Below are positions 3,352 through 64,000 of a stretch of 64,000 nucleotides of DNA, in pieces. Position 1 is the stretch's first letter; the number at the start of each line of letters is the position of its first letter. The stretch lies in the sequence record KP869102; one strand, given 5' to 3'. The notes beneath the pieces were generated by a model, which was given only the letters and a program-made list of their open reading frames with translations, was not told the DNA's origin and did no database searches. The position numbers were made by a program, and so were the translations under genes. Source of the DNA: Escherichia coli O157 typing phage 4.

Positions 3352-3529
3352 GGGTTGTGTTGTTCACTGCACCGCAGTAAATGGAGTATCCCAGCCCATT
3401 AGAGTGCAGAAACCACGGCGTGCCGAAATTATCTTTCACGTAGACATCACCGTTGCTTGTAAAGGGCCAATATTCTTCACCAAGGGTGAAATACCTACTC
3501 ATACCCTCAGCCAGATACTTTACTTTCAT
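3335..3529 (-). CDS. hypothetical small protein (paralog family with 3526-3753 and 3750-4124)
   Basis: ORF track 64 aa; shared G..W[FY][IL] and LA[EK]FV motifs. Confidence 0.45.
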   Translation of the reverse strand: MKVKYLAEGMSRYFTLGEEYWPFTSNGDVYVKDNFGTPWFLHSNGLGYSIYCGAVNNTTLAEFV

Positions 3530-31816: not shown

Positions 31817-32087
31817 TTGTCATTTTACATTCTTGAAATTTTAACACAAGACGGTGATTGTGCCTAGTGTCTAAAAAGATTTTCTCAACCATCAGGCACA
31901 CGGTATAACCGTCCATCTTGTTGATAACAAAATCTCCAGGGTGAGGGAGGATGTCTCCCGGATTGGGGAAACATAGTCCACTCAGAAAGGCATCGTCAGT
32001 GGTGGACTTAATAGATTTCCACACACTGTCTGCCTGAACATGCTCACCGACGTAATATACATTACCACATGCCTTCATCATAGTCAA
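31809..32087 (-). CDS. hypothetical protein
   Basis: ORF track 92 aa. Confidence 0.5.
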   Translation of the reverse strand: MTMMKACGNVYYVGEHVQADSVWKSIKSTTDDAFLSGLCFPNPGDILPHPGDFVINKMDGYTVCLMVEKIFLDTRHNHRLVLKFQECKMTIA

Positions 32088-32983: not shown

Positions 32984-33065
32984 GAGTGAGTGCTCCTATG
33001 TTAGTTTTCTTTCGAATGGGTGCACTATATCGGAGATTTAGAGTAAAGTCAACACGTTTTTGATG

Positions 33066-33094
33066 TTGACATCTGTTGAGACAATTGATAAGAT
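33066..33094 (+). promoter_or_regulatory. sigma70-type promoter (TTGACA-17-TAAGAT)
   Basis: -35 at 33066-33071, 17-nt spacer, -10 at 33089-33094; sits inside the track-predicted N-terminus of the next ORF. Confidence 0.45.
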
Positions 33095-33125
33095 TTCTTC
33101 ACTTACAGAGCACGAGAGACAACTC

Positions 33126-34103: not shown

Positions 34104-34107
34104 TGAC

Positions 34108-34124
34108 AGGGGCCAATGGCCCCT
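34108..34124 (+). other. GC-rich hairpin (AGGGGCC-AAT-GGCCCCT), no T-run
   Basis: Perfect 7-bp stem between the two plus-strand genes; overlaps the track start of the vWA ORF. Confidence 0.4.
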
Positions 34125-34136
34125 TCTGGAGTTTTA

Positions 34137-35597: not shown

Positions 35598-35603
35598 GAG
35601 AGG

Positions 35604-35870
35604 ATGTTATTTATGGCAACAGAGGTAGTAATTAAAGCTGAACGCCCAGTTAAAAAAGCTATCAACACGTTCCCTGTGGGAACCATTGTGAGCATGATCA
35701 CAGAGTCAGGTCGTGTATCTACGCTACTGATTGTGAAATCTGCATGTTCTTCTTGTGTGTGGGCTTACGATCTGGACGAGAAAGAACTAAAAGATTTTGT
35801 TGGGGAGCTGAAAGCAACCGAGCTCGATGCTCGTATCGAAGTATTTGGTGAAACTATGGAGGAAGAGTAA
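35604..35870 (+). CDS. hypothetical protein
   Basis: 88 aa; RBS AGAGGA. Confidence 0.5.
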   Translation: MLFMATEVVIKAERPVKKAINTFPVGTIVSMITESGRVSTLLIVKSACSSCVWAYDLDEKELKDFVGELKATELDARIEVFGETMEEE

Positions 35871-36133
35871 TGACCACGAAAATCACTATTGCAGAACCGA
35901 AAGCTAACACACAACCTATCGAAAAGTTTAAATGCGGCGAGGTGGTAACATTCACACCAGATAATGAAGATGCTAAGATTTTCGCTATGGTCACAGCTGA
36001 GTGGATGTGTGACAATACCACACAAGTACTACGTTTCGATACCTACCTCACAGATGAGATCCGAAACGATAAGATCGTGACAGGTGTGGACACTGAAATT
36101 ATTTTCTACAAGAGCTTTTTAGAGGGTTTCTGA
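35870..36133 (+). CDS. hypothetical protein
   Basis: 87 aa; RBS GGAGGAAGAG; ATGA overlap. Confidence 0.5.
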   Translation: MTTKITIAEPKANTQPIEKFKCGEVVTFTPDNEDAKIFAMVTAEWMCDNTTQVLRFDTYLTDEIRNDKIVTGVDTEIIFYKSFLEGF

Positions 36134-36134
36134 T

Positions 36135-36368
36135 ATGGCAAAAATTCGTAAATTATCCAGCAATCAGGTTGTGAAAGACTTTGAATCTGGAGAGATTCTG
36201 TATGTTCGTGATGCAGATGACGAAGGTGAAGATCTTGTTATGTTGGTGGGGCACGCTGAGGACGGATGCATCCAAGCTGTTTTTCTTGAAACAGCCATGG
36301 TGCACTGGATAGAGCTGGACTTGAAAGCACGAAAACCTAAAGCAGAAATCCTGATTTACGAAGATTAA
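36135..36368 (+). CDS. hypothetical protein
   Basis: 77 aa; RBS AGAGGG. Confidence 0.5.
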   Translation: MAKIRKLSSNQVVKDFESGEILYVRDADDEGEDLVMLVGHAEDGCIQAVFLETAMVHWIELDLKARKPKAEILIYED

Positions 36369-36384
36369 CAAAAAGGAGATAGCC

Positions 36385-36834
36385 GTGTTGAGCAAGCGTG
36401 AATGCGACAGCATTAGCCTGAATTCTTATAAGAAACAATGGTTTGGGGTAGAAGTTTGCCGACTGCGGCTAGGCTCCTACCTGAACTTCGTTTATTATGA
36501 GAGCGATAGTCGTATCGTTTCTTATGAAGTGTTCTACACTAAGAACACCTTCGAACTGCGCCGTAAAGTGGATGGTGGGAGAACTACCCCCCAGAATAAT
36601 TGGGAAACTATCCTCCCTACAGATGTTATAGGAAGTCCCCTGAATGTATCTGAAGATGAAAATCTTATGGTTCATGCTATGATGGGACTTGACAGCTTAG
36701 AGCTGGCGATCTATGATATGTCCATCGAAGCAGTTAAGCTGGACTACATCGAAAACACTTTAGAGGAAGGTATCAAGAAGTTTCTCAGTGAGAAATTAAA
36801 AGACCACTTTCATAAGGAGCTATACCTGTTATGA
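36385..36834 (+). CDS. hypothetical protein
   Basis: 149 aa; GTG start with AAGGAGA RBS. Confidence 0.5.
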   Translation: MLSKRECDSISLNSYKKQWFGVEVCRLRLGSYLNFVYYESDSRIVSYEVFYTKNTFELRRKVDGGRTTPQNNWETILPTDVIGSPLNVSEDENLMVHAMMGLDSLELAIYDMSIEAVKLDYIENTLEEGIKKFLSEKLKDHFHKELYLL

Positions 36835-37076
36835 AGACCCGTAAAGAACGTAACAAAATTTTACCAGGAGCTCTCGAACACCTGATGAAGTGCAGGTCTA
36901 TTTGGCACTCTGCCAAGGAAGGGCAGAAGGTGGTTGTGGTTAGTGACAATACCAACCCGTTTGGAGATTATACCACCATGATGGCCCCATATGTCCGTGA
37001 TGGCGTTGTAGAAGTGGTCCCTTACAACGGTCTGCATGAACGGCACTTTGAAAGCACTTTGTTAGTGGAGCTATAG
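36831..37076 (+). CDS. hypothetical protein
   Basis: 81 aa; overlaps the previous stop. Confidence 0.5.
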   Translation: MKTRKERNKILPGALEHLMKCRSIWHSAKEGQKVVVVSDNTNPFGDYTTMMAPYVRDGVVEVVPYNGLHERHFESTLLVEL

Positions 37077-37078
37077 TC

Positions 37079-37645
37079 ATGGCGGTCAATGTGGCTTACA
37101 ACACAGGAAAGCTTGACAGAGACATTGGGTGTCTTGTCCTTTCAGATACAGAAGAATATTGGGGTTATGGGTTGCTGTCAGACCCACACCCGAGCAACCT
37201 TGTATCAACAGTGCTATACCGCTACGACCCTGTGCCAACGGTACACGACAAAGACATTCACGACCTTCGTATCAAGTGCCTGGAAGATCTGCTGAACAAT
37301 GGTTGCAACGATCTGCGGGTAGCCAGGGAGAAGCTTACAAACATTCACAAAGAGGAAGTGATGAGCACCCTCAGTAAGAGATCAGTGCACAAAAAGATGA
37401 TGCTGAACTTTGCAATGGGTATCTACATGGACGGGTATAAGGGAGGTGATCCGATTCTCAAGCTTCGCTGCCCAACACTGTGGGAAAGAGTGGTTGACAG
37501 TAAGGACGGTACTGCCCTGCTCGAACTCCACACTGCAGGTTGGATTTGGCGGTATGTAGACGGATACCCTCTGTGGGCATGTGGACCTGGGGAATTTGTT
37601 GACAGACCTAGTGCGGTGGTGGACTTACTATTGCAGTTTGAATAA
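37079..37645 (+). CDS. hypothetical protein
   Basis: ORF track 188 aa. Confidence 0.5.
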   Translation: MAVNVAYNTGKLDRDIGCLVLSDTEEYWGYGLLSDPHPSNLVSTVLYRYDPVPTVHDKDIHDLRIKCLEDLLNNGCNDLRVAREKLTNIHKEEVMSTLSKRSVHKKMMLNFAMGIYMDGYKGGDPILKLRCPTLWERVVDSKDGTALLELHTAGWIWRYVDGYPLWACGPGEFVDRPSAVVDLLLQFE

Positions 37646-37703
37646 AAAAGGTGAGTTATAAGGTATTCATACACCTACCAACAATACAACAGGAGAGACT
37701 GAG

Positions 37704-37979
37704 ATGACGAAAGAAGAGGCCGACGTATTAGATTTTGCACTAGAGGCTACGCAGGAGGCTTTGGTGTTAGCTTGGAAAATGAACCAGCGTGCTGCAGAAT
37801 GCAACCGTCGCATCAATGAGATTCTGGGCATGTCTATGTATGATTTCACTATGCATGCCGGAGAGATTCCTGAATTAACTGCAGAGATGAATGATCTTGA
37901 CAATAAGATTAATATCATTCTGAAGACAGCAGAAACAACTCACCAAACCGCCCGTAAATTTATCAACGAGAAGGTGTGA
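37704..37979 (+). CDS. hypothetical protein
   Basis: 91 aa; RBS CAGGAGAGA. Confidence 0.5.
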   Translation: MTKEEADVLDFALEATQEALVLAWKMNQRAAECNRRINEILGMSMYDFTMHAGEIPELTAEMNDLDNKINIILKTAETTHQTARKFINEKV

Positions 37980-38455
37980 ATATGGACTACAGCTACTGCG
38001 GGGAAGAAGTTCCTTTTAACTACGGTAATCTTACCACAAGCAATCCATACGAGACTCGCCACGGCACACACATCATTGCCATTGACTTTGATGAAACGTT
38101 TAATGCGAGCCCTTTCATCTTCTCCCGCCTGATCAGGGACCTGAAGAAGGAGAGGTGGACAGTATACCTTGTGACTTCCCGATTCATTACTCAAGACAAT
38201 GTGGACATTGAGTATTGGCGCAAGGAGCTTGATGTTGGTGTGTTTTATACTGGAGGTATTCAGAAGGCAGCCTATCTGGCGCAGTTTGATATCTATCCAG
38301 ATATTTGGATTGATGATTCTCCGGCATGTATTCCGGCTAAAAATCAGTTAGAGTTTGCAATGAAGGAGATCGAGTATAAGTCTGAGGCTAAGCGGAACGG
38401 ATGGCCCTTTATTATTGAAGATTACCCAGATCCTGAACCGGAGAAAGAGCCATGA
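37976..38455 (+). CDS. hypothetical protein, possible HAD-superfamily phosphatase
   Basis: 159 aa; HIIAIDFDETF resembles HAD motif I (DxDxT); weak. Confidence 0.45.
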   Translation: MNMDYSYCGEEVPFNYGNLTTSNPYETRHGTHIIAIDFDETFNASPFIFSRLIRDLKKERWTVYLVTSRFITQDNVDIEYWRKELDVGVFYTGGIQKAAYLAQFDIYPDIWIDDSPACIPAKNQLEFAMKEIEYKSEAKRNGWPFIIEDYPDPEPEKEP

Positions 38456-38622
38456 GGCGAAGATATCATTACCTGATGTGGAAGTTATATCATGGTGCTG
38501 CTAAAGCCTACCGCACCGTGTTTGGTAATGACAATCACTGCATTATGTTACACCTTACCGCCATTGAACATCACAATGAGTGGATTCGTGCAATCGTAAT
38601 AGGTGACAAAGATTTTAAGTAA
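38452..38622 (+). CDS. hypothetical 56-aa protein
   Basis: Manual ORF MRRRYHYLMWKLYHGAAKAYRTVFGNDNHC...; ATGA overlap with the previous stop. Confidence 0.35.
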   Translation: MRRRYHYLMWKLYHGAAKAYRTVFGNDNHCIMLHLTAIEHHNEWIRAIVIGDKDFK

Positions 38623-38652
38623 AGTATTGCTTTCTAGATGGAGACTGATTAA

Positions 38653-39033
38653 ATGTGCAAGTGTAAATCCTATAATTGGAAAGTGAAAGGTGCCAAGCAT
38701 CAAAATGTTATCGTTGATGTGCCTAAAAAGCTCCGTGACGGCAAAAAACGTGTGTGCCTTGATAAGTGCATGGCTAAGCCTATCATGAGTCTATGGGCGG
38801 CAGGATTGAAAACTCTAAACTGCTGCTGTGGTCATAACAAAGATGTTCCAAGTATCATTATCCCAGAGGATGCAGACCCTAAAGCTTATGCCAAAATACT
38901 GACTCGCTACCCCAGCACCTTTCTGATCGGAAAATGGTGTCACGATGAACTTCAATGGTGGGTAGCATACGGTAGTATAGGTACTGCTTTTGGCTTCCCA
39001 GCTTTGTCAGAGCGCTACGTCAAAGTGTCATAA
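38653..39033 (+). CDS. hypothetical Cys-rich protein
   Basis: 126 aa; several Cys pairs (CKCKS, CLDKC, NCCCGH). Confidence 0.5.
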   Translation: MCKCKSYNWKVKGAKHQNVIVDVPKKLRDGKKRVCLDKCMAKPIMSLWAAGLKTLNCCCGHNKDVPSIIIPEDADPKAYAKILTRYPSTFLIGKWCHDELQWWVAYGSIGTAFGFPALSERYVKVS

Positions 39034-39138
39034 CCTATTTTAAGGCCTCAAACGAGGCCTGTGCCTTCATAAATTGCCCTACCCTGTGAGATTACCCTCC
39101 TGAACAAAATACCTCCCCAGAATCGCTTAAAATTAAAC

Positions 39139-39167
39139 TTGACACCAACACCAGATCTATGTATGAT
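39139..39167 (+). promoter_or_regulatory. sigma70-type promoter (TTGACA-17-TATGAT)
   Basis: -35 at 39139-39144, -10 at 39162-39167; overlaps the track start of the next ORF. Confidence 0.45.
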
Positions 39168-39197
39168 TATCTCACCAACCGAACAGAGGAGATCGTC

Positions 39198-39605
39198 ATG
39201 GATAATCTTGCGGATGTAAATGTCGAGATTGTTAAACTAAAGTTCTTGGGCTTTCGAGACCCTTATTCTTTAACAGCTATACTAATGGACACTCACTTCA
39301 CACCAGGTAAAGAGTACCCAGCCTTCCGTTATATTTGTGGAGATCACGAATCAGCTTATAGTGTGAATACAAACCTCGGCGAGGGATATTTCATCAGAGA
39401 TATCACAGATCACTTATGGGGAATGTGGGAGTTGGTGGAAGAAGAGAATAAATCCCTTCCTAAAGAGATTTGGGTGCACACCTTCCACACAGGCAAGTTT
39501 GGAGGTACGGAACATAAGTCTATCCACTATGATGAAGAAAGTGCCATCAAACAACAAGCTGTGCTTGGTGGATCTGTAGAAAAATTTGTTAAATGCGAGG
39601 ACTGA
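39198..39605 (+). CDS. hypothetical protein
   Basis: Track ORF 39159-39605; ATG at 39198 with AGAGGAGA RBS lies downstream of the promoter. Confidence 0.5.
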   Translation: MDNLADVNVEIVKLKFLGFRDPYSLTAILMDTHFTPGKEYPAFRYICGDHESAYSVNTNLGEGYFIRDITDHLWGMWELVEEENKSLPKEIWVHTFHTGKFGGTEHKSIHYDEESAIKQQAVLGGSVEKFVKCED

Positions 39606-39608
39606 GAA

Positions 39609-39809
39609 ATGGCTGATTTTTGTAAAGATTGCTCTGAAGAGTTATTTGGCTTTGACTGCAAAGATTTGGAAGGTCTGATCACTGAGGATCAGTGGAAGGA
39701 AGGCTATGCAGCACCTGTTATTTGTGAAGGCTGTGGTTACACCTATGTCGATCATGAAGGTAAGCGTGTCCAGCCGTCTGAAGATGGGTCGTGTTGGGAA
39801 TACTACTAA
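39609..39809 (+). CDS. hypothetical small Cys-rich protein, possible zinc ribbon
   Basis: 66 aa; CKDCS...CEGCG; RBS GAGGA. Confidence 0.5.
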   Translation: MADFCKDCSEELFGFDCKDLEGLITEDQWKEGYAAPVICEGCGYTYVDHEGKRVQPSEDGSCWEYY

Positions 39810-39813
39810 TTAT

Positions 39814-39850
39814 AAAAAGAAAGGGGCCAAACGGCCCCTTTTTATTTACC
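39814..39850. terminator. bidirectional intrinsic terminator
   Basis: Hairpin GGGGCC-AAAC-GGCCCC at 39824-39839 with an A-run upstream and a T-run downstream, between convergent transcription units. Confidence 0.7.
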
Positions 39851-39855
39851 CCTTG

Positions 39856-42800
39856 TTAACGAGAAAAGGTTGCGTAGGCTTCTAGACGATACTGCTGGTC
39901 ACCAGGGAACATAACACCTATAGAGGCTGTCCCTAGAATCCTGCCTTCCTTTCCAGACTCCATTCTGAACCCTACCCATCCTGAACTTCTTGCAGCCTCG
40001 ATGTTGTCGCTATACCCGAAAGTGGCAAGATCGTCAACACCAGCCCCAAACAGCAACTGAAGCTGACTTCTCGGAAGCCCTATAATTTCAGGAATATACG
40101 CACCAAAGTACACCATCTGCCCTACCTTAGGACCGCTGCCGTACTCCATCGGTTTGCTTGTAGAGAAAGTCTTCATACCAGAAGTACCTGCCGGATTAGG
40201 GTATGCCCCGTTTGTTGCTGTACCTATCCACATTCTCCACTGTGGTGCCATCTGTTTGACAGTAAAAGATGTTGAAGACGTTTTGCGCCCTGCATCATCA
40301 GTAACTACAAACTTTATGGTGACATTCCCAGTAGCTTTAAATGTTACCAGTCCTGTGGTAGCATCTACTGTTGCAATGTTGGTATTACTACTTTCCCAAG
40401 TCTTTCTAATCCCGGCTACGTTGGAAGGGGTAATAGAAGGTTCCTGCATCTGCAGTTTACCACCAACAATCCCTATGCCGTTGCCCGGATTATACAGCAC
40501 ACCAACCTCATCTATAATGTTCCCTGCTTTGAGAATATACTTCCTTGAGAAGTTGTAAGTTCCGTTATAAGTGTGTGTCCCTGAGAAGGTGACATCTGCT
40601 TTTCCGTAAGAGATGCAAACCAAAGCATACTTCCTGTCAGGCAACGTTGCTCCCGTCTCCGGGTGAGTTTTACCAACCTGGAACACGCTGGGGTCAGTAG
40701 AATCGTGGCTATCGCTGACAGAGCTTGGACCACCCATCAACTGAGGTAAGCAATTCCTTACCCACGTCCAGTTATTGTCACTAGAGAAGTCAACAGCCAG
40801 ATCAAATACAACCCACTCATTTGGCTTCCATACAGGTGTTGCAATGGATTTACCTACACCACCTCCTTGAAGTGTTGCCGACTGTTCAGTGATCAGGGCC
40901 GCATAGGCCAGAGTTCCTAAACTCAGAGTCTGGCTTGCTGTCCTCACTACCTTAGAATCAGCATCTGTGAAGTTGTTGATGATCTGGAATGTGCCATAAG
41001 TGTTTTTACAGGTAATTCTGGCGTTCAGCGTGTCAATCTTCCTCACATCTGCCATAGCAGTGTTAGACACAGAGAAGTCAGAAGCTTTAGCTGAGTTTGC
41101 CGCAACAGCAGGATCAACGTTAAGAGTTGCGTTGAACTGACAGGCAGGGGTAACCAGCAGCTTGTTATCACCTATTTGTTTCCATGAAACACTTTGAACA
41201 GGAAGATTCCATTTAATACCTGAGAAAACTTTAGCAACCCTTGGCCCCAAAGCTCCAGTCCTGTTGTCTTTACAGCACATGGACATGGTGATCGTTGACG
41301 GAGTGGCCTGACCAAATAATTGCTGTGCTTTTGCAGAGGACATAATATAGAAATTGTCCTTAACAAACTCATCAGCAGCTAAAGATCCATCAGCTCCCCA
41401 CCACTGAACCTGATACCCTGTTTTGTCCCAACCACCGACCTGCTTCAAGTCCTCCCAGGAGATTTCCAGATCCCCAGTGGTAGGGTTGATTGCAGCAGTT
41501 CCCGGTGTTCCAGAGGACCATAATGGGATATCGAACCACGCTGGTTTAACAGATTGTACTGCGTTCGGTCCTATTGCAGCAGCAAGTTGCTGACCCATCA
41601 ACACACGAGCATCTTTTACCAAGCCCCATTCAATCATGGACCCGGAGTAGCCTTCTTTCTTATAGGCCGAAGATCCGTTCAAATGGATAAGCCTGCTGCA
41701 GTCGAAACCATACGCCCCGCCACCGTTAGGATCTGCAAAGTTAGTTATGATTCTATCCCTTATATTTTTCCATGCCCTGCCTCCAATCTCATAGTCATGG
41801 TCATAACATCTCTGCAGCGTTGTCCAGCAAATGATTGCCATTCTTCTGCCACCAGTAAACCCGAAAGCGCCGTCATTCAACTCTTTCCACAGATAGCAGT
41901 TAGTTGCCCACATAGCTCTGTGGATATTGAACCAGTTTATAGACTTAGCAGAATTGTCCCACTGAGTTCCCGGTAATTCAGGCCACACCGCATTCACCAG
42001 CATATCCTCTGTGCCAGCATCGACCAAGAAGCCTCTTACCTTCCTACCCATCCCTTCTCTGTCTTTAGCAATCCAATTGCCAAACAGCCTCAGTTTTGGA
42101 CCATAAACAACATCTTCAGGGTGCTCAAAAGAGACATACTTCAAGTATACCGTAGGATCACCGTAGGTGCCATCACAAACACTTTTATGCATGTTCTCAC
42201 CCAGGTCTAGACGAAGTCCTGTCACCACTTTAGATGTGTCGGTGAATTTGTCTGTTAAATCAAATTCATACCACCACCATCCGCCACCAAGCATAAATTT
42301 CTTGCACCGCGCAGTGTCTGTATCTGATATTCTCTTATCCCCTGCAAAAGGTGAATCAGCAAACTGATAGTGCAGAGCAGTCTCAAATAGATGTGTTGAG
42401 GTTCCGTTTTCTGCAAGAACTTGCTTACCTATTAAGTCGCACTTAATGATCATCACAACACGCTTGTAGCCGTTTGTTATCGGAACCTGCATAGATATGG
42501 ATGTTCCGTCCATGTTCGATCTTAGTGCGGTCATGATGATGTAAGGATCAACAGCATTACCCAAAGTTTCAGGTCCTGGAATTATCTTGTACTTCTTGAC
42601 CTGCCCCATGAATCTGTCACTGGCGTAAGTTGCAGCCTCGAAGCAAGACCCACCACCAGGTAGTTCCCCCGGACCCCAGAAAAATGCGCCATAACAGTTA
42701 TAAAACCACTTGTTAGGGTCATATTTATTCTTGAAGGTCTGAACCTCGTTGGCCTGTTTTGTCAAGAAAACCTGCGTATCTGTGAAGATTGCAGGGTTTA

Positions 42801-54945: not shown

Positions 54946-55012
54946 GTCACTCCTCCGGTATGAAAATCTCTACAAGGTATTTTACCAAATTTTGTAACAA
55001 TAGTCAATCTGA

Positions 55013-55041
55013 GCATAAAAATAAACCCCGCCGAAGCGGGG
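55013..55041 (-). terminator. intrinsic terminator (CCCCGCCGAAGCGGGG hairpin)
   Basis: Same hairpin as at 28888; preceded on plus strand by an A-rich run; immediately after the 1279-aa gene stop. Confidence 0.6.
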
Positions 55042-55050
55042 CTTTAAAGG

Positions 55051-58000
55051 TTAGTCGTGAGACTCGTTCCAAGGTCCTTGGAAGCTTGAGTTAGAACGGC
55101 TTACCACAACAGTAGGACAGGATATTGCGACCCCTGTTACAGAAGACGTTGACCATGGTGTGTAGATTTCAACAACAATATCTATGGTTTGTTCACCAAG
55201 ACCTGTTATCCCTACCGCACACATGCCGTTGTTGTCGTTTCCGTACTTCTTCCCTGCAAGGATTTGATGTCCGGCTATCCAAACGTTGAGCTGGGAGCCA
55301 GACAAGGTTCCGTTTAGTTTAAAGAAGAATGTTACGTTCTTACCTTGTCCTGAAACGTTGTCCACATATCTCCACCTCCAACGGCAAACCCTCTGCTGCG
55401 AGTTATATACTGGAGGACAGTCACCGTAGGTTCTGTGTGCAACTATTGCACCTTCGAACTGGTTAGCACGGATAACAGAAGCTTCTACACGCCCACGGAA
55501 GGTACCTCCGGTTGCATCTATGGTGCCCCTAAAGCTACCATTATTGGCATAAACATCCCCACGGAAGGTACCACTAGTGGCGTTAACTGCCCCTGTGAAG
55601 TTACCAGAACTAGCGTTGATGTTGCCTTTCACCCACACATCCATAAATTGGGCGTGCCCGTTCTTGTTAATATACCAACCGTATTTATGGTACCCGTTGC
55701 CATCGTAGTTGTTTGACGAGATTTCTTGTGCGATCTTGGCAGAGGAGATCGTGCCATTCTCTATAAAAGCGTCTTTCAAGAACGCTTGGTTGTTCTTGAT
55801 TGCGAAAGCAAGGGTTGCTGTTCCATTTCCTGGGTTGTATACCGCAAAATTGTTTGCACTAACCATGAAGTAGGATTGAACTTGGCCTCCAGACCCTTCC
55901 ATCCCCAACTGAATACCTGCAACATATTTATTCCCTGCGGAGTCTACCTGTATTTTTGTGCCCCATTGAGCATTTACTTTACCCTCTAAGTCGGTTACAG
56001 CCTTAGATGTTGTAGCTACTGCAGCCCTGATCTCAGACACATCCCCAACATCATCCATGATCTCCTGCTTAGCAACAGCAAGTTCTTGACGAATAGCTGA
56101 CGCTGTGCCGTTGATAAGGTCCACAGTGGCTTTGTTGGTATCGGAAATTGTAGCATCCAGCGCTGTTTTTGTGGAGGTCAGTTTTCCATCCAAAGCATCA
56201 ATCGCTTGCTTGTTGGTAGAAATCTCCCCACGTGCAGAAGTTATCTGCTCTGACAGTGCAGATGTTTTCTGATTCAGCAGGTCAGTGGTGGCCTTGTTGG
56301 TATTGGCAATCAAGGTGTTGAGGTCAGTTTTTGCGGTAGTTATCTTTCCGTCAAGGGTGGTATAGTTTTTAGATACCGTCGCGTTTGTCTGACTAATCTT
56401 TTGATCCAGAGTTTCAGATGTCCTGTTCAAAAGATCCACAGTGGCTTGGTTAGTGCTCAAGATGCTTGCGTCAAGTTCTGTTCTCTGAGTATTGATCTTA
56501 CCATCTAGAGTTTTATCTCCGGCTAAATACCCGCTCTCAACTCCCTCTAGCTGCTCTACCAGTTCACCTTTGGCGGCAACCAATTTCTCATCTAAAGCCT
56601 CTGTCTTTTTGTTCAGAAGATCAGTAGTTGCTTTATTGGTTGTCTCAATCAGAGATGCCAATCTTCCACTTTCAGTGTTCAGATCGTTGGTGAACTTGTT
56701 CTGTGCAGCAACAAGTTTCCTATCCAGCGCTGTGATATTGCCATTGACATCCTCAAACTTCTGAGTTGTCTCTGTAACTACCGCACCTATTCTGTCCCCA
56801 AGTTGCTGGAATGCCTCATCTACCCTACCATCCATGTATTTATTAAGCTCTGTGACACGATTTTCAACCTCTTCAATAGAGGAATCCAAAGTGCTCATCA
56901 ACTCTTTATAAGTTTCTGTCTTTTTGAATTCAGCATCTATCTGAGGCATCAAATCCTCGATAGAGGTGTAGCAGTGTGCAGCGCATTCTACAAACTGAGA
57001 GCTACCAAAAGCGTTTGTGGTTCGAATATACCAATAATAAACCTTATCGTTCTGCAGGCCTTCAGATGTCCAAGTTGAACCAACACCCATACGGGTGGCG
57101 TTTGAAGTAACGGTTGCATCACTGGTGTCTGGCAACCTTGTCATACCAGATGTCCAAAAGTCATACTGGGTGCTAACACTTGCTAAATCCCTACTATGCG
57201 GAATCAAGGTGATAGCAAAGTATCCTTGCTTAACCTCTACAGAAACCGGAGCTTCAGGTGCCTGAATGTTAAACTCACAGTACGCTTCTGGAGATACACC
57301 ACCTTTATAGGATGTTGCAACCACGGTTGCTGTGTATGACCCTTTGGTCAAGCCTTCTACTCGGACAAACTGCTCAACTGTCTGTGCTGTCCAAACAATC
57401 TCTCCGTTCTTTCTTACCTGCACAATATTTTGAGCGTAAGTCCCAACGTTGTCCCAAGCCAAAACACCGTGAGTTACTTCCCCAGCTTGGAGAACGGAAT
57501 ATCTGAAGTTTTGCGGTTGAGCTACACCAGATGGAGATATTGGAATATCTACATCGCCAGAATCCGGAAGTTGTCCTGTGGCATCATTCCACTCTTTAGC
57601 ATCTTGACGAAGTTTTACCTTGACACCACCCTTTTTGGTAAACTCCCATTCAAGAACTCTCATTTCTTGGCCCACTATACCAATACTTGGGAGGTCCATT
57701 GTAACGTAACGACCAGGTTTAAATTTGAAACCTCGCATATTGCAGGTGACTTCAATAATCCTGCCAGCTCTGGCACGTCTTAGGAAGATTGCAGAAACAC
57801 GCTGAGCTTGATAAGGACTGGTAACAAAGCGATAGTCTATATCGATTATCTTTCTTTCTCCATCCTTCTCTATCCACTCTGGGACAAACACTGATGGAAA
57901 ATCTGTTTCAGAATACCCTTTGGTAGGACTGGTGAATCTGCCAGTTATTGTGTTGGATCTTTTGTCAAATGAGGCTTCCGGATAGATCTTGACCTCACCA

Positions 58001-58890
58001 CAGACACAATCCTCACTCAGTGTCATTGTTGCCGGGCCATAGTATGCACCAACCAGCAAACCATACTTACCAGCTACATAGCTGAGATCTGCGCCACAAG
58101 CTTTCAGCATTTCTGCCATAATACTTGCTGGGGCCTCATCCATATCGAACTCGCCATTAATTGTGTAACGGCGCTCACTGGTTCCGTCTGCGTTTTTTAC
58201 CGCCTCGTCGCATATGTTGGCAGCCTCCTTGAAGGACTCCCAGTTGATGGTTTCGTCAGGACATTTAAGGTACGTTCTTAAATAGTCTAGAATCACCAAG
58301 GCTGCGTTATTGGTGTACACCTCTTTACTGATACGAGGATCATAGCATTTTTTACCAACCTTAACGAGTGTAACGTTTGGCAACCCAAAAGGAAACTTGT
58401 TAGGGTCAAACTTGAAGCTGGCACGTAGCCAACTGATCCCTCTACCTATCATGTCTGGTGACCACGATGGGCAGTGTGTCCCCATGAAAGGATCAGCTGT
58501 TTTTCTGTCGTTATGTAGCTCCCACGATACCAAATCCCCATATGAGGAAATAGGATTACCGTCGATAAGTATATCCTCTATACCTTCCAAAGGGTGATTG
58601 GCAAGAACAATAGCACAATGGAGAGTTCTGTCTCTATCCTGCTCCAAAAACGCAAGCAATCCGGATGTGCGTGTCTTCCCATACACTACAGAGCAAGGTG
58701 CAGCAGAAGATCTGAGAAGCTTTTGTCTATCTTGCTGACTTCTGTAAGATTTGTTGCCCTCAAAAATCTTATCCAGAGTTCTGGTGGTAACAGTGTTCAG
58801 GCTGTCAGCCAGAGCTGCCTTGGATGCGTTCCAGTCATAACTTGAAGATCTTGCAGAAGCAACGATGTTATCAATCATTGCAATTGGCAT
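55051..58890 (-). CDS. lambda J-like tail tip / host-specificity protein with expanded coiled-coil repeat array
   Basis: 1279 aa; segments QGYFAITLIPH...YDFW...YYWYIRTTNAFGSSQFVE and NKYVAGIQLGMEG...FMVSANNFAVYNPGNG recalled as matching lambda J; central heptad repeats of about 300 aa. Confidence 0.75.
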   Translation of the reverse strand: MPIAMIDNIVASARSSSYDWNASKAALADSLNTVTTRTLDKIFEGNKSYRSQQDRQKLLRSSAAPCSVVYGKTRTSGLLAFLEQDRDRTLHCAIVLANHPLEGIEDILIDGNPISSYGDLVSWELHNDRKTADPFMGTHCPSWSPDMIGRGISWLRASFKFDPNKFPFGLPNVTLVKVGKKCYDPRISKEVYTNNAALVILDYLRTYLKCPDETINWESFKEAANICDEAVKNADGTSERRYTINGEFDMDEAPASIMAEMLKACGADLSYVAGKYGLLVGAYYGPATMTLSEDCVCGEVKIYPEASFDKRSNTITGRFTSPTKGYSETDFPSVFVPEWIEKDGERKIIDIDYRFVTSPYQAQRVSAIFLRRARAGRIIEVTCNMRGFKFKPGRYVTMDLPSIGIVGQEMRVLEWEFTKKGGVKVKLRQDAKEWNDATGQLPDSGDVDIPISPSGVAQPQNFRYSVLQAGEVTHGVLAWDNVGTYAQNIVQVRKNGEIVWTAQTVEQFVRVEGLTKGSYTATVVATSYKGGVSPEAYCEFNIQAPEAPVSVEVKQGYFAITLIPHSRDLASVSTQYDFWTSGMTRLPDTSDATVTSNATRMGVGSTWTSEGLQNDKVYYWYIRTTNAFGSSQFVECAAHCYTSIEDLMPQIDAEFKKTETYKELMSTLDSSIEEVENRVTELNKYMDGRVDEAFQQLGDRIGAVVTETTQKFEDVNGNITALDRKLVAAQNKFTNDLNTESGRLASLIETTNKATTDLLNKKTEALDEKLVAAKGELVEQLEGVESGYLAGDKTLDGKINTQRTELDASILSTNQATVDLLNRTSETLDQKISQTNATVSKNYTTLDGKITTAKTDLNTLIANTNKATTDLLNQKTSALSEQITSARGEISTNKQAIDALDGKLTSTKTALDATISDTNKATVDLINGTASAIRQELAVAKQEIMDDVGDVSEIRAAVATTSKAVTDLEGKVNAQWGTKIQVDSAGNKYVAGIQLGMEGSGGQVQSYFMVSANNFAVYNPGNGTATLAFAIKNNQAFLKDAFIENGTISSAKIAQEISSNNYDGNGYHKYGWYINKNGHAQFMDVWVKGNINASSGNFTGAVNATSGTFRGDVYANNGSFRGTIDATGGTFRGRVEASVIRANQFEGAIVAHRTYGDCPPVYNSQQRVCRWRWRYVDNVSGQGKNVTFFFKLNGTLSGSQLNVWIAGHQILAGKKYGNDNNGMCAVGITGLGEQTIDIVVEIYTPWSTSSVTGVAISCPTVVVSRSNSSFQGPWNESHD

Positions 58891-59327
58891 TAATACCTCC
58901 AGACATCAACAACGATAGAATCTTTCATGTCGAACATAAAGACCCCTTTATCACCTTTCGCCCAAATCTGGTTGTTCCAGAACACACCAGCGGTGAGCCC
59001 GTTCAGACCTTCGAAAATGACAATATCTCCACGCTGAACCTGTTTAGGAGTGTCCAGGCGAGTCATAAAGAAATCAAAAATAGTGGGCAAATGTGTGGTT
59101 TTGAAATGAAGCATGCACCATCTCTTGCTTTCCAACTCTGTTTTATACGTTCCTTCGAAGTTAGAAAGAAAATCTGTTCCGTATTGGGCATCAACACACT
59201 TAGCCGCAAAAGTGCAACAATCGTGGAATCCCCATTCAAAAGGTATGGTGGCCTCTTCGTCAAATACTTTCCACAACCTTTCTTGCCAGTCCACTAGACG
59301 AGGATGTGTGCTCATTAAACCTCCCAA
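58890..59327 (-). CDS. minor tail protein, possible NlpC/P60-like
   Basis: 145 aa; directly upstream of the J-like gene; Cys-containing FHDCCTFAAKC. Confidence 0.5.
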   Translation of the reverse strand: MGGLMSTHPRLVDWQERLWKVFDEEATIPFEWGFHDCCTFAAKCVDAQYGTDFLSNFEGTYKTELESKRWCMLHFKTTHLPTIFDFFMTRLDTPKQVQRGDIVIFEGLNGLTAGVFWNNQIWAKGDKGVFMFDMKDSIVVDVWRY

Positions 59328-59881
59328 ATGATCGGGCGGCTCGCCACCTGATCCACATATTTAAAAAATCTGTCATTATCGTTTCTTGAGCTGTGGCTTT
59401 CCTCCGTGTACCGATAAGGAAAACCTCTTAACCAACTGTTGAAGATGGAAGAGATGGATATGGACAAAGCACTATTCTCACCCGTCTGAATAGCCATATC
59501 TGTTATAAGTCCGTCAAACAAGCCATTAGTTGTAACAGGCAGACCATTCTCCATAGCGGTAATGTACAACGTGGCACGACAACCAGAATACTCCGTCTTC
59601 AGCAGATCACCCACATACTTAGGATCAAACCCGTTTAATGTTGCTACCACAGATCCGAAGTTGGTGGCATCTTTCTCAGACACAGCAGTTAATGTTGCTG
59701 ATCCACCTATCCCTATAAAATGTTGTCCCTCAATTACTACAACACCAGTACCTGAGCACACCCTGACAGTTCCTGTCGGGAGCTCCAGTTTTGCAGCAAT
59801 CAAGATCTCAACACCATCAAGCTCCAGTTTTTCAAGAAATAAATTATCTAATGGCGCTCTAATCATCTTAGAAATCCTCAA
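59315..59881 (-). CDS. minor tail protein
   Basis: 188 aa; position in the tail-tip cassette. Confidence 0.5.
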   Translation of the reverse strand: MRISKMIRAPLDNLFLEKLELDGVEILIAAKLELPTGTVRVCSGTGVVVIEGQHFIGIGGSATLTAVSEKDATNFGSVVATLNGFDPKYVGDLLKTEYSGCRATLYITAMENGLPVTTNGLFDGLITDMAIQTGENSALSISISSIFNSWLRGFPYRYTEESHSSRNDNDRFFKYVDQVASRPIIWEV

Positions 59882-60458
59882 AGAAGTTGATAACTATATT
59901 ATCACCTTTTTGCATAGCATCGACTTTTTGCTTAATTTTATAAATATCTCTGATATGAAACCTGCCCTTCGGAGATTGAGTTATTATCTTCATAGTGTCC
60001 CCTGCGGCAATAGGTTTTCTAAGTCTTGGAGATATGCTTATAACAGCAGACCCAACACCATCGCTACGCACTGGAGCTGTTACCACTTTCAATTCATCAT
60101 TGACAGATATTTTATCTCCGGCTCTGGCTATGTCTCTGTTTGGCTCCCACCCAACCGTCTTCAAAAAATCGTCGTTACCAGTAGGCCCAAGGGCGATTGG
60201 CTCATTAGCTGTTACTGAGTGACCGTAAGTTTTAATAAGAAAGATGTTCCCATCTTTATACACCTGATCAACAAAACTCTTAAGCTCTAGCAACTGTGAC
60301 TCGCTGATATTGGAGACCGTCAAAGTGCCTTTCCAGTTAGGTGTGGCATAGGTTACTTTTTGCGTTTTACCTGTAAACGGACTTTTAAACGTAACAATAT
60401 CTGCCAACAGCTCCAATCTAATATCTGGAAGGTATCTAGGCCTTTCCCATAAAAACAT
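59868..60458 (-). CDS. minor tail protein
   Basis: 196 aa; position in the tail-tip cassette. Confidence 0.5.
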   Translation of the reverse strand: MFLWERPRYLPDIRLELLADIVTFKSPFTGKTQKVTYATPNWKGTLTVSNISESQLLELKSFVDQVYKDGNIFLIKTYGHSVTANEPIALGPTGNDDFLKTVGWEPNRDIARAGDKISVNDELKVVTAPVRSDGVGSAVISISPRLRKPIAAGDTMKIITQSPKGRFHIRDIYKIKQKVDAMQKGDNIVINFFEDF

Positions 60459-60520
60459 TGTGCCTCCAGGTTAAACAATCATGATAGTTATTTTACCAGA
60501 TTTTGAGTTAATACGCAATA

Positions 60521-60550
60521 CAAACAAAAAGCCCCCGCCGAAGCGAGGGC
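60521..60550 (-). terminator. intrinsic terminator (imperfect CCCCGCCGAAGCGAGGG hairpin)
   Basis: 8-bp stem with one mismatch, preceded on plus strand by CAAACAAAAA. Confidence 0.5.
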
Positions 60551-60556
60551 AATACT

Positions 60557-60889
60557 TTAAAGTACTTCCAAGGTGGATACTGATGGGTCGAACATGTTCA
60601 ACCTTATCGGATCTACAACTTTTCCGCTTTTAGAGATGATGTTTTCTGCATCCTCGTCCAGAGCCAGAACGTTAACATAAAACAATTCACTTTTCTCGCA
60701 AACTGGGTAGACAACCATGTTGCCAAACTCATCTTCGGCCTCATAAGTATCTCCAGTCTCTGTGTAAATGAACCCGACAACCTCTACAAGAAGGGTGTTT
60801 TGCAACACCTCATTCTCGTAAAAGCCGATTTCGTCCATGAAACCATTAAAATCCTCCCTGTCAGTAAACCCAAGGGTAAAAGTATTCAT
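60557..60889 (-). CDS. hypothetical acidic protein
   Basis: ORF track 110 aa; followed by a terminator. Confidence 0.5.
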   Translation of the reverse strand: MNTFTLGFTDREDFNGFMDEIGFYENEVLQNTLLVEVVGFIYTETGDTYEAEDEFGNMVVYPVCEKSELFYVNVLALDEDAENIISKSGKVVDPIRLNMFDPSVSTLEVL

Positions 60890-63800
60890 TATTCAACACT
60901 CTCCATCATAAGCTGGGTGTCTGTCAGTGCAGAGTTCCAAACCCTTATGTCCTTAATATGACCAAATAAGTGTCTTTCACCTGTCGCCGTTTGACCACCA
61001 ATGCGGATGAAAGCGCCTCCTGCCAGGAATTCCCAAGAAGACTGCGTTTCCGTGCTCACCAGTCCGTTAGCAAAAGAGCAGGTTTTACCATCATCTTTTA
61101 TCCTGAACCCAATTTTCAATTTACGGGCTTTAGCCATCTCGTAAACACGTCTGTTTGACCCTCCAATATCACAGTATGGGTGACCATCATCCGCAATATT
61201 TGTTGCAGAGCCAAATCCCATGATAAATGCAGCACCGGATTGATGACCTTCTGTATCAATAACCCTAGGAGCTGCGTTAGGAGCTTTGCCCCAGCCTCTC
61301 CAGTTGGCATCAACCGTAGCGGCGATAGTGAACGGTCTGGGCGCTAGGTTATCCGTCATTGGAAATTTACAAAGATCTGCCGCCCTGGTTACAGGTGAAG
61401 ACCCTGTAGGGATAAACGAGGACTCACAAGATCCTAACTCAAACTGAGGTATTGCAACGTCAACCCAATCTCCTACGGCATGTTGAGAACTCTTCGGCGG
61501 GACAATCTGGAATTGGCACCCGATATTCCTGTCAGAGGCCACTGCCTCAAACGTAGCAACAACCCTTGTCCAAGCAGGTCCGGCTGTTTGCCATCTCTCA
61601 GCTTTTACTTTAATTCTCCCCGCTGCACCACCTGTTGTTTCCACTTCAAGTGTTGACAGGTTAACATAAGCATCGCCTTGAAATGTTGTGGTGGATCCGT
61701 CGTACATGTCGAATCTTATACGCAGTCTCTGGTGAGCTTTACCGCCTCTTGCAAGGATAGACCCAGTACAGAATTTCTCAGCACCTGTTACATCGGCACC
61801 TCTGGTGGCTGGAACTACAGCCAAGTTTAACGCCGTTGTTTCTACACCGGACGTGGTGTTTACTGTAAATCTTGCACCTTTTGTGCCGTTGGTGTTTGTT
61901 ACAGTGCTACCGACAGTAATCGCCTGCTGTGCACCCCATTTACTCGGGTCTTCACTGTTAAGCATCAGGTTTGTCCTTTGCCCCTCAATAAGCAACCCAT
62001 CTCTTTCAAAACGTGGTTGGTTTGCTTGTGCAACAGCCATAACACCGCGCTTAGTGAAATAGGTTGCTGTAGAAGGTCTGGAGAAGACCATCTCACCTTC
62101 ACCCAGTGCAGGTTTTAGGTTAGAGGTTAAAGGCAACCACAAGTCAGGCATAACTGGAGCGGTGGTGTTTTCTGGGAAGCTTGTTCTCTTCCAAGGGCTC
62201 CAAGCCATTCCGCTGCCAAGGTTATTGTAATACCTTTCCCATGTTCCGCCAAGATACATTTTATATATCTGGATACAACCTGTTCCTTCGTTAGCGGAGT
62301 TTCTAAGCACGATCAGCGTACCTGCCATCTGCTGACCTGGTGGGTAATTTCTTTCCGCTGTGGCGTTGGCATTCGCCTCTTGATGGTAAATCCCTTCACG
62401 ATCTGCCTTGTAGTCGTTAAGGTCATTAGTTCCCAACCCTTGACCACGGTGCTGAATAACTTTGTTCCACGCTCTGTGGTTTCCTTGCTCTATGGAACGA
62501 GTGTATAGCTGGTCTAAACGACCTGCCATCTGGAAAGCGTAGTTTCCAGAAAATGCCACAGACAACCCGCCAACAACCATGGAACCTTCAGGTCCGTTGA
62601 CGTTACCAGCCATTATTTTAGAAGGGTTGTTATTCCCGAACTGGTTGTTCCAGTCTGCACCTGTGTGGCATACAAAACCACCAGGAGCTGAGAAAGTGCC
62701 ATCTTTGTTGAAGTTGTAGAATCTATGGGCTGAACCAACAACATCTCTAACAATGACCTGACCCGCCTCTGGGGTAGATCTGAACTCGGCCTGTCCTTTG
62801 AGACCAGCACCATTACCGCATTTAGAGGTAAATGTACCGTTAGTTAAATCCTCTGTTCCATCTGATGCACACTGGAATCCTGCATTAGAGAATAACGCCT
62901 TTCTAGGACTGCCGTAACACAAATAGTCAAGACCGTCTGCCCATAGCTCGACTTTTGGCATATTCATTTTGCTCATCACAGCATAGCGTTCAGCAGTGCC
63001 TATATAGTGCCACTGTGTGCCGCCGCCAGTGTAGAACCCAGAGGTACCTTTGAAGTCAACAATAGGTCTGGTATTGGTGTTGTTATCTCCAAGAACAGCG
63101 AGATTCAAATCTGCTGACTGGAGAGGTGCAACGAACTTAACACCGTCCTGATTGTTTGTTACAGAGCCGACCTGGTAATCTTGCTCTCTGGTAAACACTT
63201 CGACAACATTTCTACTTGCGTATATGCTGACAGGGAAAGCACGAGCCTCTACATAGAAAGCAACATACTCTTGTTTACCCCTTGTTGGAGCAACCATCCC
63301 AAGAAGTGCTTTTTCATTCTGGTAGAAATTTACTACCCCGTAGAAAGAGTCTCCTCTGTCTGTCCAACCACCAGTCCTATAGTGACACTGTAAGGTAGCA
63401 CAGTTCATAGGGTCATTTCCAGATGACGATCTGGTAACTATGGTAATATCAGTACCAGTTGCTGGAGCATAGTACGGATCTGTTCTAACGATGATCGGGT
63501 AGTATTTCCCATCTTCCATCCCTGCGGTTCTTGGCAGTGTTAAGAAGTCTTTCACACCTGCTGCTATAGGAACTTTGAACAGATTCTGAGCATCTGCTAA
63601 AGTTGTAGCCCCAGTACCACCTGCGGCTTGAGGTAAAGGTTCCCACTTGGCCTTCCGGTTGTTATAAACACCCCATTCCAGAGTGCCGTTACCGGATTCG
63701 TCCATCCCACCATCCCAGACAACCATCTTGGCGGCTTTCTTGGACCCCCAGAAGCCTCTTTCTGCCCCTGAACTACGGATCCATTCTCCAAGACCCCAGT

Positions 63801-64000
63801 TTGTCAGCTGACCAGTAAGATCCCCAACCTGCATGTATTTAGGGCAGTCTAACACGCCATCTTCGCGGAAACCTAAATATCTATGAGTTTCAGATCCTTT
63901 TGCACCTTTGTGCAGGTGGATTGTCAACCAAGCCTTATTGTCGTTTCTTACCTCAGAGTAGATCCTATATCCATGCTCAAGGACACCGTCAGCGCTGTAT
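60889..64000 (-). CDS. large beta-rich tail fibre/spike-like protein with C-terminal LamG-like lectin domain; N-terminus outside window
   Basis: Track starts at TTG 63927, but the frame stays open to position 64000; C-terminal HLFGHIKDIRVWNSALTDTQL resembles LamG domains; Gly/Thr/Asn-rich. Confidence 0.7.
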   Translation of the reverse strand, partial: YSADGVLEHGYRIYSEVRNDNKAWLTIHLHKGAKGSETHRYLGFREDGVLDCPKYMQVGDLTGQLTNWGLGEWIRSSGAERGFWGSKKAAKMVVWDGGMDESGNGTLEWGVYNNRKAKWEPLPQAAGGTGATTLADAQNLFKVPIAAGVKDFLTLPRTAGMEDGKYYPIIVRTDPYYAPATGTDITIVTRSSSGNDPMNCATLQCHYRTGGWTDRGDSFYGVVNFYQNEKALLGMVAPTRGKQEYVAFYVEARAFPVSIYASRNVVEVFTREQDYQVGSVTNNQDGVKFVAPLQSADLNLAVLGDNNTNTRPIVDFKGTSGFYTGGGTQWHYIGTAERYAVMSKMNMPKVELWADGLDYLCYGSPRKALFSNAGFQCASDGTEDLTNGTFTSKCGNGAGLKGQAEFRSTPEAGQVIVRDVVGSAHRFYNFNKDGTFSAPGGFVCHTGADWNNQFGNNNPSKIMAGNVNGPEGSMVVGGLSVAFSGNYAFQMAGRLDQLYTRSIEQGNHRAWNKVIQHRGQGLGTNDLNDYKADREGIYHQEANANATAERNYPPGQQMAGTLIVLRNSANEGTGCIQIYKMYLGGTWERYYNNLGSGMAWSPWKRTSFPENTTAPVMPDLWLPLTSNLKPALGEGEMVFSRPSTATYFTKRGVMAVAQANQPRFERDGLLIEGQRTNLMLNSEDPSKWGAQQAITVGSTVTNTNGTKGARFTVNTTSGVETTALNLAVVPATRGADVTGAEKFCTGSILARGGKAHQRLRIRFDMYDGSTTTFQGDAYVNLSTLEVETTGGAAGRIKVKAERWQTAGPAWTRVVATFEAVASDRNIGCQFQIVPPKSSQHAVGDWVDVAIPQFELGSCESSFIPTGSSPVTRAADLCKFPMTDNLAPRPFTIAATVDANWRGWGKAPNAAPRVIDTEGHQSGAAFIMGFGSATNIADDGHPYCDIGGSNRRVYEMAKARKLKIGFRIKDDGKTCSFANGLVSTETQSSWEFLAGGAFIRIGGQTATGERHLFGHIKDIRVWNSALTDTQLMMESVE

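Follow-up and report, generated by a model that had tools for sequence, protein, structure and literature searches.

The contractile-tailed phage rV5 carries gp37 in its virions, where it was found by mass spectrometry (PMC3606486), and the protein is labelled "central tail fiber J" in RefSeq and "lateral tail fiber protein with fibronectin type III domain" by BASEL. For this part of the locus, the BASEL paper found "very strong allelic variation" and proposed that such genes contact variable host structures (PMC8594841). In the RBPseg study, J-type fibers with coiled coils of varying length are described (structural class TC5, with the "tail needle" fibers TC3/TC4/TC9 alongside), as is a Vequintavirinae fiber with large coiled-coil domains, a central-fiber-like N-terminus and a C-terminal beta-helix (PMC12143355). 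Here, we analyzed the gp37 ortholog of Escherichia coli O157 typing phage 4, encoded in a 64,000-nt stretch of sequence record KP869102 (hereafter the window, meaning the whole stretch analyzed), which is a segment of a Vequintavirus genome. A preliminary description of this DNA had pointed to a lambda J-like protein carrying a greatly expanded array of coiled-coil repeats; a J-like protein with a long coiled coil is already catalogued, and the finding as first stated matters little. The reading that we favor, with somewhat better than even confidence, is that gp37 is a J-type fiber whose stalk acts as a stiff spacer setting the reach of a conserved tip, with the domain architecture and the module origin described below.

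Domain architecture of gp37

The gene lies at 55051..58890 on the minus strand, which is the strand of all features given below unless stated otherwise, and encodes 1279 amino acids, exactly the open reading frame (ORF) of the preliminary description. Its product is 100% identical to P0001, the E. coli O157 typing phage 4 protein, and its DNA is 98.5% identical to rV5 gp037; a text search of the rV5 supplementary tables for gp37-gp41 gave no matches. The J-like assignment is solid, as Pfam, PHROG, PDB sequence matches and fold matches all point to the likeness to lambda J that had been claimed, with PHROG 31 ("central tail fiber J") spanning aa 143-1122 (E = 2.9e-164). The strings quoted in support of that claim were all found in the translation (YYWYIRTTNAFGSSQFVE at aa 618-635, KYVAGIQLGMEG at aa 988-999, NPGNG at aa 1019-1023 and the stalk repeat NKATTDLLNKKTEALDEKL at aa 752-770). 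Alignment to lambda J sequences from solved structures matched both flanks of the stalk (E = 6e-28), with residues 497-683 of the query aligning with lambda J 666-849 and residues 955-1116 with J 842-991. Since these are the only two blocks aligned, about 270 query residues are left with no lambda counterpart. Alignment to T5 pb3, also proposed earlier, gave no match for the single sequence, although a profile built from relatives matched pb3 (E = 1.7e-11).

Taken alone, the identity of gp37 and its domain architecture are in our view practically certain. From N- to C-terminus, the protein consists of a siphovirus tail-tip hub, two fibronectin type III/immunoglobulin (FN3/Ig) domains, a helical stalk of ~320 residues, a DUF1983 beta-prism, G-x-F-x-G beta-helix repeats and a beta-sandwich head.

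The N-terminal segment (aa 1-47; 58750..58890) is polar and shows no homology to the siphovirus relatives, BLAST homology to Nonagvirus, psageK9 and P0145 proteins beginning at aa 48-50. Its top 19-residue hydropathy window scores 0.31, whereas 43 relatives have a median score of 2.11 and 91% of them reach at least 1.6. All Vequintavirus alleles share this polar N-terminus, whereas 91% of the related J proteins, Nonagvirus included, have an Ala/Gly/Ile-rich hydrophobic segment at this position. The loss of the hydrophobic segment may mark the loss of a role related to the tail lumen or a membrane once the gene had moved into a myovirus.

Profile matches place a tail-tip hub region of the T5 pb3 and lambda J type at aa about 48-490 (57421..58749). 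The hub profile (A1), in which the N-terminal 455 residues of gp37 were aligned with the same region of 15 relatives (16 members), matched T5 pb3 (E = 1.7e-11 and 1e-10), 9l9p_S (1.9e-7) and 23gd_D (4e-4), and lambda J marginally (0.05-0.08). A literature search on the solved J-like proteins 9l9p and 23gd did not reveal what they are. PHROG 5616 spans aa 44-505, and Pfam Phage-tail_3 (PF13550) matches 10 of the 16 profile members, gp37 itself not being among them. The two FN3/Ig domains follow at aa 493-652 (56935..57414), the region aligned with lambda J 666-849. Ig_J (PF24421) matches aa 493-545 with an E-value of 2.6e-5, weaker than the curated cutoff, and Ig_J_second (PF24489) matches aa 547-652 (E = 1.9e-30).

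Beyond the stalk, a tail-tip fiber domain (DUF1983/Phage_Tail_Tip; aa 957-1097, 55600..56022) is identified by Pfam PF09327 (E = 1.2e-38). An AlphaFold2 (AF2) model of aa 860-1279 built with 23 sequences (mean predicted local distance difference test, pLDDT, 65.8) presents this domain as a beta-prism-forming meander with pLDDT 72-87, and the best Foldseek matches of the model are lambda gpJ fiber structures (E = 5e-17 to 5e-7), the central fiber 8xcj at 5e-17. Next come beta-helix-like G-x-F-x-G repeats (aa 1098-1150, 55441..55599; sequence SGNFTGAVNATSGTFRGDVYANNGSFRGTIDATGGTFRG), modeled by AF2 with low confidence and also present in many J-family representatives. The protein ends in a putative receptor-binding head (aa 1140-1279, 55054..55473), which is 96-98% conserved among all Vequintavirus alleles and is predicted to be a beta-sandwich (pLDDT 60-83) with weak resemblance to GOLD and CBM35 folds. 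Among 150 J-family representatives, its only homolog is P0177, a lambdoid prophage J protein (E = 5e-46), and it has no sequence similarity to the lambda receptor-binding domain.

A helical stalk built of diverged repeats

The stalk is the counterpart of the short alpha-helical shaft of lambda J, lengthened by four to five diverged units of 43-62 residues. Thr, Leu, Ala, Asp, Glu and Lys abound in residues 640-960, whereas Pro occurs only once in 320 residues. Over these 320 residues the hydrophobic period is 3.60-3.65, with a power of 2.99 against a null 99th percentile of 1.83, while the power at period 3.5 is 0.02 and no beta-type period near 2 is found among the top peaks. Local windows give periods of 3.57-3.68, and hydrophobic residues are spaced by 3, 4 and 7. 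Because 3-4 and 3-4-4 spacings are mixed, the array combines heptads and hendecads rather than being made of plain heptads; the repeats that the preliminary description called heptad-like are thus real, and the label is imprecise, the period being 3.63 rather than 3.5. Bearing on the coiled-coil prediction proposed there are a coherent hydrophobic period above the shuffle null and low-confidence AF2 helix, at aa 631-972 with a single sequence and at aa 860-946 with 23 sequences. The single-sequence run (aa 541-1279; mean pLDDT 43) served as a hint of secondary structure only. The stalk weakly matches the coiled-coil needle gp26 of P22 as well as coiled-coil families in Pfam, and we consider it to be, presumably, a trimeric coiled coil.

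The proximal part of the stalk (aa 654-732; 56695..56931) is not repeated, has a hydrophobic period of 3.57-3.62 and is helical in the low-confidence AF2 model; it is conserved in the allele of O157 typing phage 14 (TP14) and diverged in the Murica and NHEP1 alleles. It is followed by a repeat array (55936..56694) of five units, each centered on the motif TN(K/Q)AT(T/V)DL(L/I)N: U1 (aa 733-794, 62 residues), U2 (aa 795-845, 51 residues), U3 (aa 846-899, 54 residues), U4 (aa 900-942, 43 residues) and the degenerate U5 (aa 943-985, 43 residues). Clear copies of the motif start at aa 751, 813, 864 and 918, followed by a degenerate one at aa 961. Self-similarity peaks at offsets of 105, 54 and 51 residues (z = 6.6, 5.7 and 5.5; the highest value in 300 shuffles was 4.19), and U1-U4 are pairwise 31-47% identical. 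U5 extends into the tail-tip domain and is aligned to residues 842-861 of lambda J; the end of the stalk, at aa about 973, lies past the first residues of the beta-prism domain (aa about 957).

A search at the DNA level detected no tandem array, just short repeats at chance level, which indicates that the units are old and diverged; a recent duplication of the units was rejected on the same ground. A test of whether unit lengths are sums of 7 and 11 proved uninformative, as about 78% of integers in the range fit, and a helical-phase test was therefore used instead. At period 3.63, all six unit lengths and all seven indel lengths come close to whole numbers of helical turns, with a mean deviation of 0.097 against 0.249 for random lengths, and none of 20,000 random sets was as good.

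A Gly-rich stretch inside U1 (EGVESGYLAG, aa 783-792, 56517-56546) interrupts the helix in the low-confidence AF2 model and is deleted from the Murica allele. It may act as a hinge of the stalk.

Stalk alleles in Vequintavirus

A tblastn search with the stalk alone found matches only in Vequintavirus records (114), falling into several identity classes. The comparison of repeat number among relatives proposed in the preliminary description gave a clear series in the four complete alleles that were aligned: a stalk of 214 aa with 3 motif copies in TP14, 239 aa with 4 copies in Murica, 319 aa with 5 copies in the window and rV5, and 421 aa with 7 copies in NHEP1. The flanks of these alleles are nearly constant, residues 1-650 being ~99% identical and the last 307 residues 96-98% identical and of constant length. 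The TP14 allele corresponds to that of rV5 shortened by exactly 105 aa (units of 51 and 54 residues), with an in-register junction at a 13-nt microhomology. Between alleles, DNA identity is 51-77% in the stalk and 93-100% in the flanks, which argues for mosaic replacement rather than uniform drift.

In the four aligned alleles, the variable part of gp37 is therefore the stalk and the tip is invariant, which argues against the alleles being receptor-specificity variants. For this gene, the strong allelic variation that the BASEL paper reported thus lies in the stalk. The earlier suggestion that the repeat region may extend or reposition the receptor-binding tip fits an allelic stalk series with an invariant tip, as far as sequence comparison goes.

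Two observations concern the records themselves. In Escherichia phage vB_Eco_Alma (L009 681-4281), the gp37 ortholog is annotated as two coding sequences (CDS; 681-3023 and 3010-4281), frame 0 having its first stop at about codon 780, within the stalk, through a frameshift or a sequencing error; the Alma stalk forms its own tblastn identity class (53.5%, in two pieces). Among GenBank records MG065635-MG065682, about 18-22 named "Campylobacter phage", with Campylobacter jejuni as the stated host, are 96-97% identical to rV5 across the gp37 gene and have genomes of rV5-like size. They look like E. coli Vequintavirus genomes with a doubtful host label.

Stalk length across the J family

To place these lengths, the linker was defined as the residues between the second FN3 domain and the tail-tip domain, the boundaries of both being set by custom domain hidden Markov models (HMMs). 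It measures 316 aa in gp37 and 35 aa in lambda J, a difference of about nine times. A whole-protein search was uninformative on diversity, all 120 matches listed being 99-100% identical. We thus scanned a library of 1.84 billion representative proteins clustered at 50% with aa 80-1279 of gp37, which yielded 150 diverse relatives, 69 of them with both flanking domains. The shortest linker in these 69 representatives has 2 aa and the longest 2471 aa, and the quartiles are 156, 315 and 755 aa in a set biased toward stalk carriers, because the query included the stalk; several pure coiled-coil linkers reach 650-1100 aa. The description of the array as greatly expanded accordingly holds against lambda (35 aa) and Nonagvirus (60 aa), and fails within the closest subfamily, where the median is 315 aa. 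Judged from these sequences, the gp37 stalk is a variable-length element of typical family length and no unusual insert.

The tail-tip module and its genomic slot

Three genes preceding gp37 form a tail-tip module with it. The gp38 ortholog (58890..59327; 145 aa) is a DUF6950 protein (Pfam PF22262, E = 4.5e-33), the gp39 ortholog (59315..59881; about 185 aa) is a tail-tip partner matching PHROG 2048 "tail protein" (E = 8.9e-68), and the gp40 ortholog (59868..60458; 196 aa) resembles distal tail proteins (Dit; PHROG 1302 "distal tail protein", E = 2.2e-50). The four genes are homologous to the tail-tip genes of the Nonagvirus Salmonella phage SE1, with identities of 45% (gp40, over 60 aa), 39% (gp39), 46% (gp38, to the gene in the same position) and 55% (gp37). 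A homologous module in an uncultured siphovirus contig (L015; 30-35% identity) comes directly after the tape-measure gene, with 35% identity for gp38, 34% for gp39 and 30% over 173 aa for gp40. We propose that gp37, the Dit-like gp40, gp39 and the DUF6950 protein gp38 entered the myovirus together from a 9g/Nonagvirus-like siphovirus lineage. We do not term gp38-gp40 homologs of lambda M, L and K, BLAST against lambda M, L, K and I having given no similarity.

The SE1 record (L004 4264-4783) annotates the "distal tail protein" as 124 aa, and the gp40 match runs past the annotated end; its tape-measure gene is split into several CDS. This record probably contains frameshifts.

The module sits between a gp44 homolog and the wedge gene gp36 of the myovirus baseplate cluster and, unlike the J genes of non-contractile tails, does not follow a tape-measure gene. 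The slot between gp44 and the wedge gene covers ~12.7 kb in Vequintavirus, from gp43 through gp37 (window about 54946-64000+). It is empty in TH18 (114 nt; L010 8886-9001), and in Klebsiella, phi92-like and Aeromonas relatives it holds unrelated fibers or depolymerases (L011, L012 and L013, upstream of 9001). The module is absent from the phi92-like phage JohannJBalmer, and the baseplate and fiber sections of the phi92 cryo-electron microscopy (cryo-EM) paper mention no J-like protein. The hub gp46 and the spike gp45 are kept in the relatives for which that part of the locus was retrieved, including some that are without the J module.

Next to the module, a gp41-like fiber gene (window 60557-64000, minus strand) runs off the window end. 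Proximally it is 90.7% identical to rV5 gp041; blastn matched neither its distal ~1.8 kb nor a separate 110-aa ORF (60557-60889, PHROG 1361) to that gene. The pattern is that of a classic distal-end fiber swap, unlike the mid-stalk variation of gp37. Elsewhere in the window, GC skew and AT skew flip sign at 32000-40000, where ORFs lie on the plus strand (33060-35597), marking a block read against the minus-strand direction that otherwise prevails in this region. The window yielded no tRNA genes.

Possible roles of the stalk

If the stalk is a stiff rod, it would measure ~47 nm here at ~0.148 nm per residue, and ~32-62 nm across the known alleles. Together with the FN3 and distal parts, such a fiber would be of the same order as the thin 70-nm fibers of rV5 (PMC3606486). 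The stalk behaves like a cassette prone to recombination, in which whole units can be lost, gained or swapped with the helical register unbroken. Several points weigh against this spacer model. In cryo-EM of two Vequintavirus phages, three other fibers were resolved and the gp37 fiber was not reported (PMC12143355). A simple spacer leaves unexplained why a myovirus should keep the hub along with the Dit-like protein and the remaining tip partners. The TP14 record is a partial genome, and the deletion that it carries could therefore be of laboratory origin. Thr makes up 14% of the stalk, which is unusual for a canonical coiled coil; the trimeric state is presumed, the AF2 runs of the stalk being low-confidence monomer models; and the family median of 315 aa comes from a set retrieved with a stalk-bearing query.

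A long coil directly upstream of a beta-prism "seed" (here DUF1983) is also the arrangement of the F7 pyocin (PMC12874032), and the stalk could by analogy be a metastable spring whose coiled coil turns into a beta-prism on receptor binding, shortening by ~30 nm and pulling the baseplate to the cell with a stroke set by repeat number. The alignment of U5 is with the lambda J segment (842-861) that goes from helix to beta strand on LamB binding (PMC11101478), the F2 pyocin fiber aligns with query 872-1078, and in the stalk Thr, Ala and Ser are abundant and the self-similarity carries an 11-residue signal. However, a search for the SxSxxMxxLxS strand pattern, coded from the residue classes of PMC12874032, showed no enrichment (3 full matches where shuffles give 3.4; P = 0.69), with similar outcomes for Murica and NHEP1, and the stalk stays helical in AF2 with 1 and with 23 sequences, in monomer runs on a shallow alignment; the published switch test used AlphaFold3 (AF3) and CF-random with deeper alignments (PMC12874032). 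Moreover, a contractile tail already provides the penetration force, and the large changes of sequence and length tolerated by the stalk are easier to reconcile with a passive rod than with a tuned switch. We regard the spring as unlikely, and just as unlikely a variant in which gp37-gp40 would form a free-standing siphovirus-type tip complex, mounted on the contractile baseplate as an extra fiber, with the stalk as an adjustable spring whose 3 to 7 repeat units set both reach and stroke. Another reading, in which gp37 and gp38-gp40 are the true central tail tip on the tail axis as in lambda, would account for the presence of all J-family domains and of three partner genes syntenic with siphovirus tail tips, and for the RefSeq label, but this phage has a contractile tail whose tube initiator, hub (gp46) and spike (gp45) are its own and are conserved in relatives that have no J module, and it probably does not use gp37 as a lambda-style central tip. 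The module does not adjoin the tape-measure gene, the hydrophobic N-terminal segment of the siphovirus homologs is missing, and rV5 electron micrographs show five to six thin 70-nm fibers, not one (PMC3606486); an axial position is therefore the least probable of the roles considered here.

Two further explanations turn on the variability of the stalk itself. Variation confined to the stalk surface, with an invariant tip, would also be expected of a docking rail for other fiber proteins of a branched adsorption apparatus, the alleles tracking partners and not reach. Vequintavirus phages encode about nine fiber proteins (PMC8594841 and PMC12143355), and phi92 fibers attach to one another (PMC13450770). 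Yet the window and rV5 share a stalk allele and differ in the distal halves of their gp41-like proteins, so that strict co-variation with that partner is absent; the coil is not broken by any binding motif or inserted domain, and whole-unit indels that keep helical phase are what one would expect a plain rod to tolerate. We rate docking as improbable, if slightly less so than the spring; both it and the axial role are less likely than the preferred spacer. A drifting neutral linker, with allele differences due to relaxed constraint, agrees with the weak constraint on coiled-coil sequence beyond its hydrophobic pattern and with units only 31-47% identical to each other. Against such drift, the contrast between flanks and stalk in DNA identity cannot come from uniform divergence and points to imported or recombined segments, helical phase is kept in all 13 unit and indel lengths, and all four complete alleles aligned have a stalk of at least 214 aa. 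Neutral drift is thus quite unlikely, somewhat more so than the spring.

Under the spacer reading, the allelic series suggests that fiber length is a trait that varies among Vequintavirus phages, which are common therapeutic candidates with broad host range, and the stalks of 214, 239, 319 and 421 aa would constitute a natural set bearing on how fiber reach affects infection across layers of O-antigen or capsule. That a myovirus keeps a complete siphovirus tail-tip module under purifying selection is, in addition, a structural puzzle. The stalk-length polymorphism, the siphovirus module in a myovirus slot and the lost hydrophobic N-terminus, which we did not find described in the literature searched, are modest additions to what is known.

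Comparison with known systems

In T5, the hub pb3 and the FN3-bearing central fiber pb4 are separate proteins, and that phage is not known to have a comparable coiled-coil stalk. It is to residues 421-718 of pb3 (PDB 7zhj, 8hqz) that the N-terminal hub profile of gp37 matches with an E-value of 1.7e-11.

The TC5 and TC3/TC4/TC9 fibers of RBPseg resemble gp37 in having coiled coils of varying length and, in some cases, lectin/GOLD-like heads, and the Vequintavirinae fiber among them agrees with the domain layout found here; they differ in being predicted structures only, and in its accessible part the study reports neither a stalk-length allele series nor a siphovirus module origin (PMC12143355). 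The central fiber of F-type pyocins (F7: PMC12874032; F2: PDB 25vf) is likewise of the J family and has a long coiled coil (163 residues) upstream of its beta-prism. The pyocin coil, however, is a proven fold switch with the SxSxxMxxLxS pattern, whereas in gp37 this pattern is not enriched and a switch is not predicted.

Lambda gpJ (8iyk, 8xci, 8xcj, 8xck) shares with gp37 the order of hub, FN3-1, FN3-2, helical shaft, beta-prism and distal head, with a fold match over ~365 columns. It differs in a shaft linker of ~35 aa, against 316 aa in gp37, in a hub match that is only marginal and in distal heads that have no sequence similarity; furthermore, the host virion of gp37 is that of a myovirus, and its partner genes are of the DUF6950 type and not M/L/K/I, to which they show no BLAST similarity.

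Long stalks also occur in two other relatives. P0145, a 1275-aa protein of an uncultured siphovirus, has the four-gene tail-tip module and a 307-aa stalk, and P0177, a 1484-aa lambdoid prophage protein, combines a 389-aa stalk with the one homolog of the C-terminal head found outside Vequintavirus. Unlike gp37, both are encoded directly after tape-measure genes in non-contractile clusters, and the partners of P0177 are lambda-type M, L and K (NlpC/P60) proteins.

The closest relative outside the genus is found in the Nonagvirus (9g-like) group, namely gp02 of Salmonella phage SE1 (879 aa), which is 55% identical to gp37 over aa 48-721 and 49% identical over aa 895-1095 and is preceded by the same three partner genes in the same order. 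Its stalk is only ~60-90 aa long, matching both ends of the gp37 stalk; the protein ends 33 aa past the tail-tip domain, with no beta-helix repeats or head, and it keeps the hydrophobic N-terminus.

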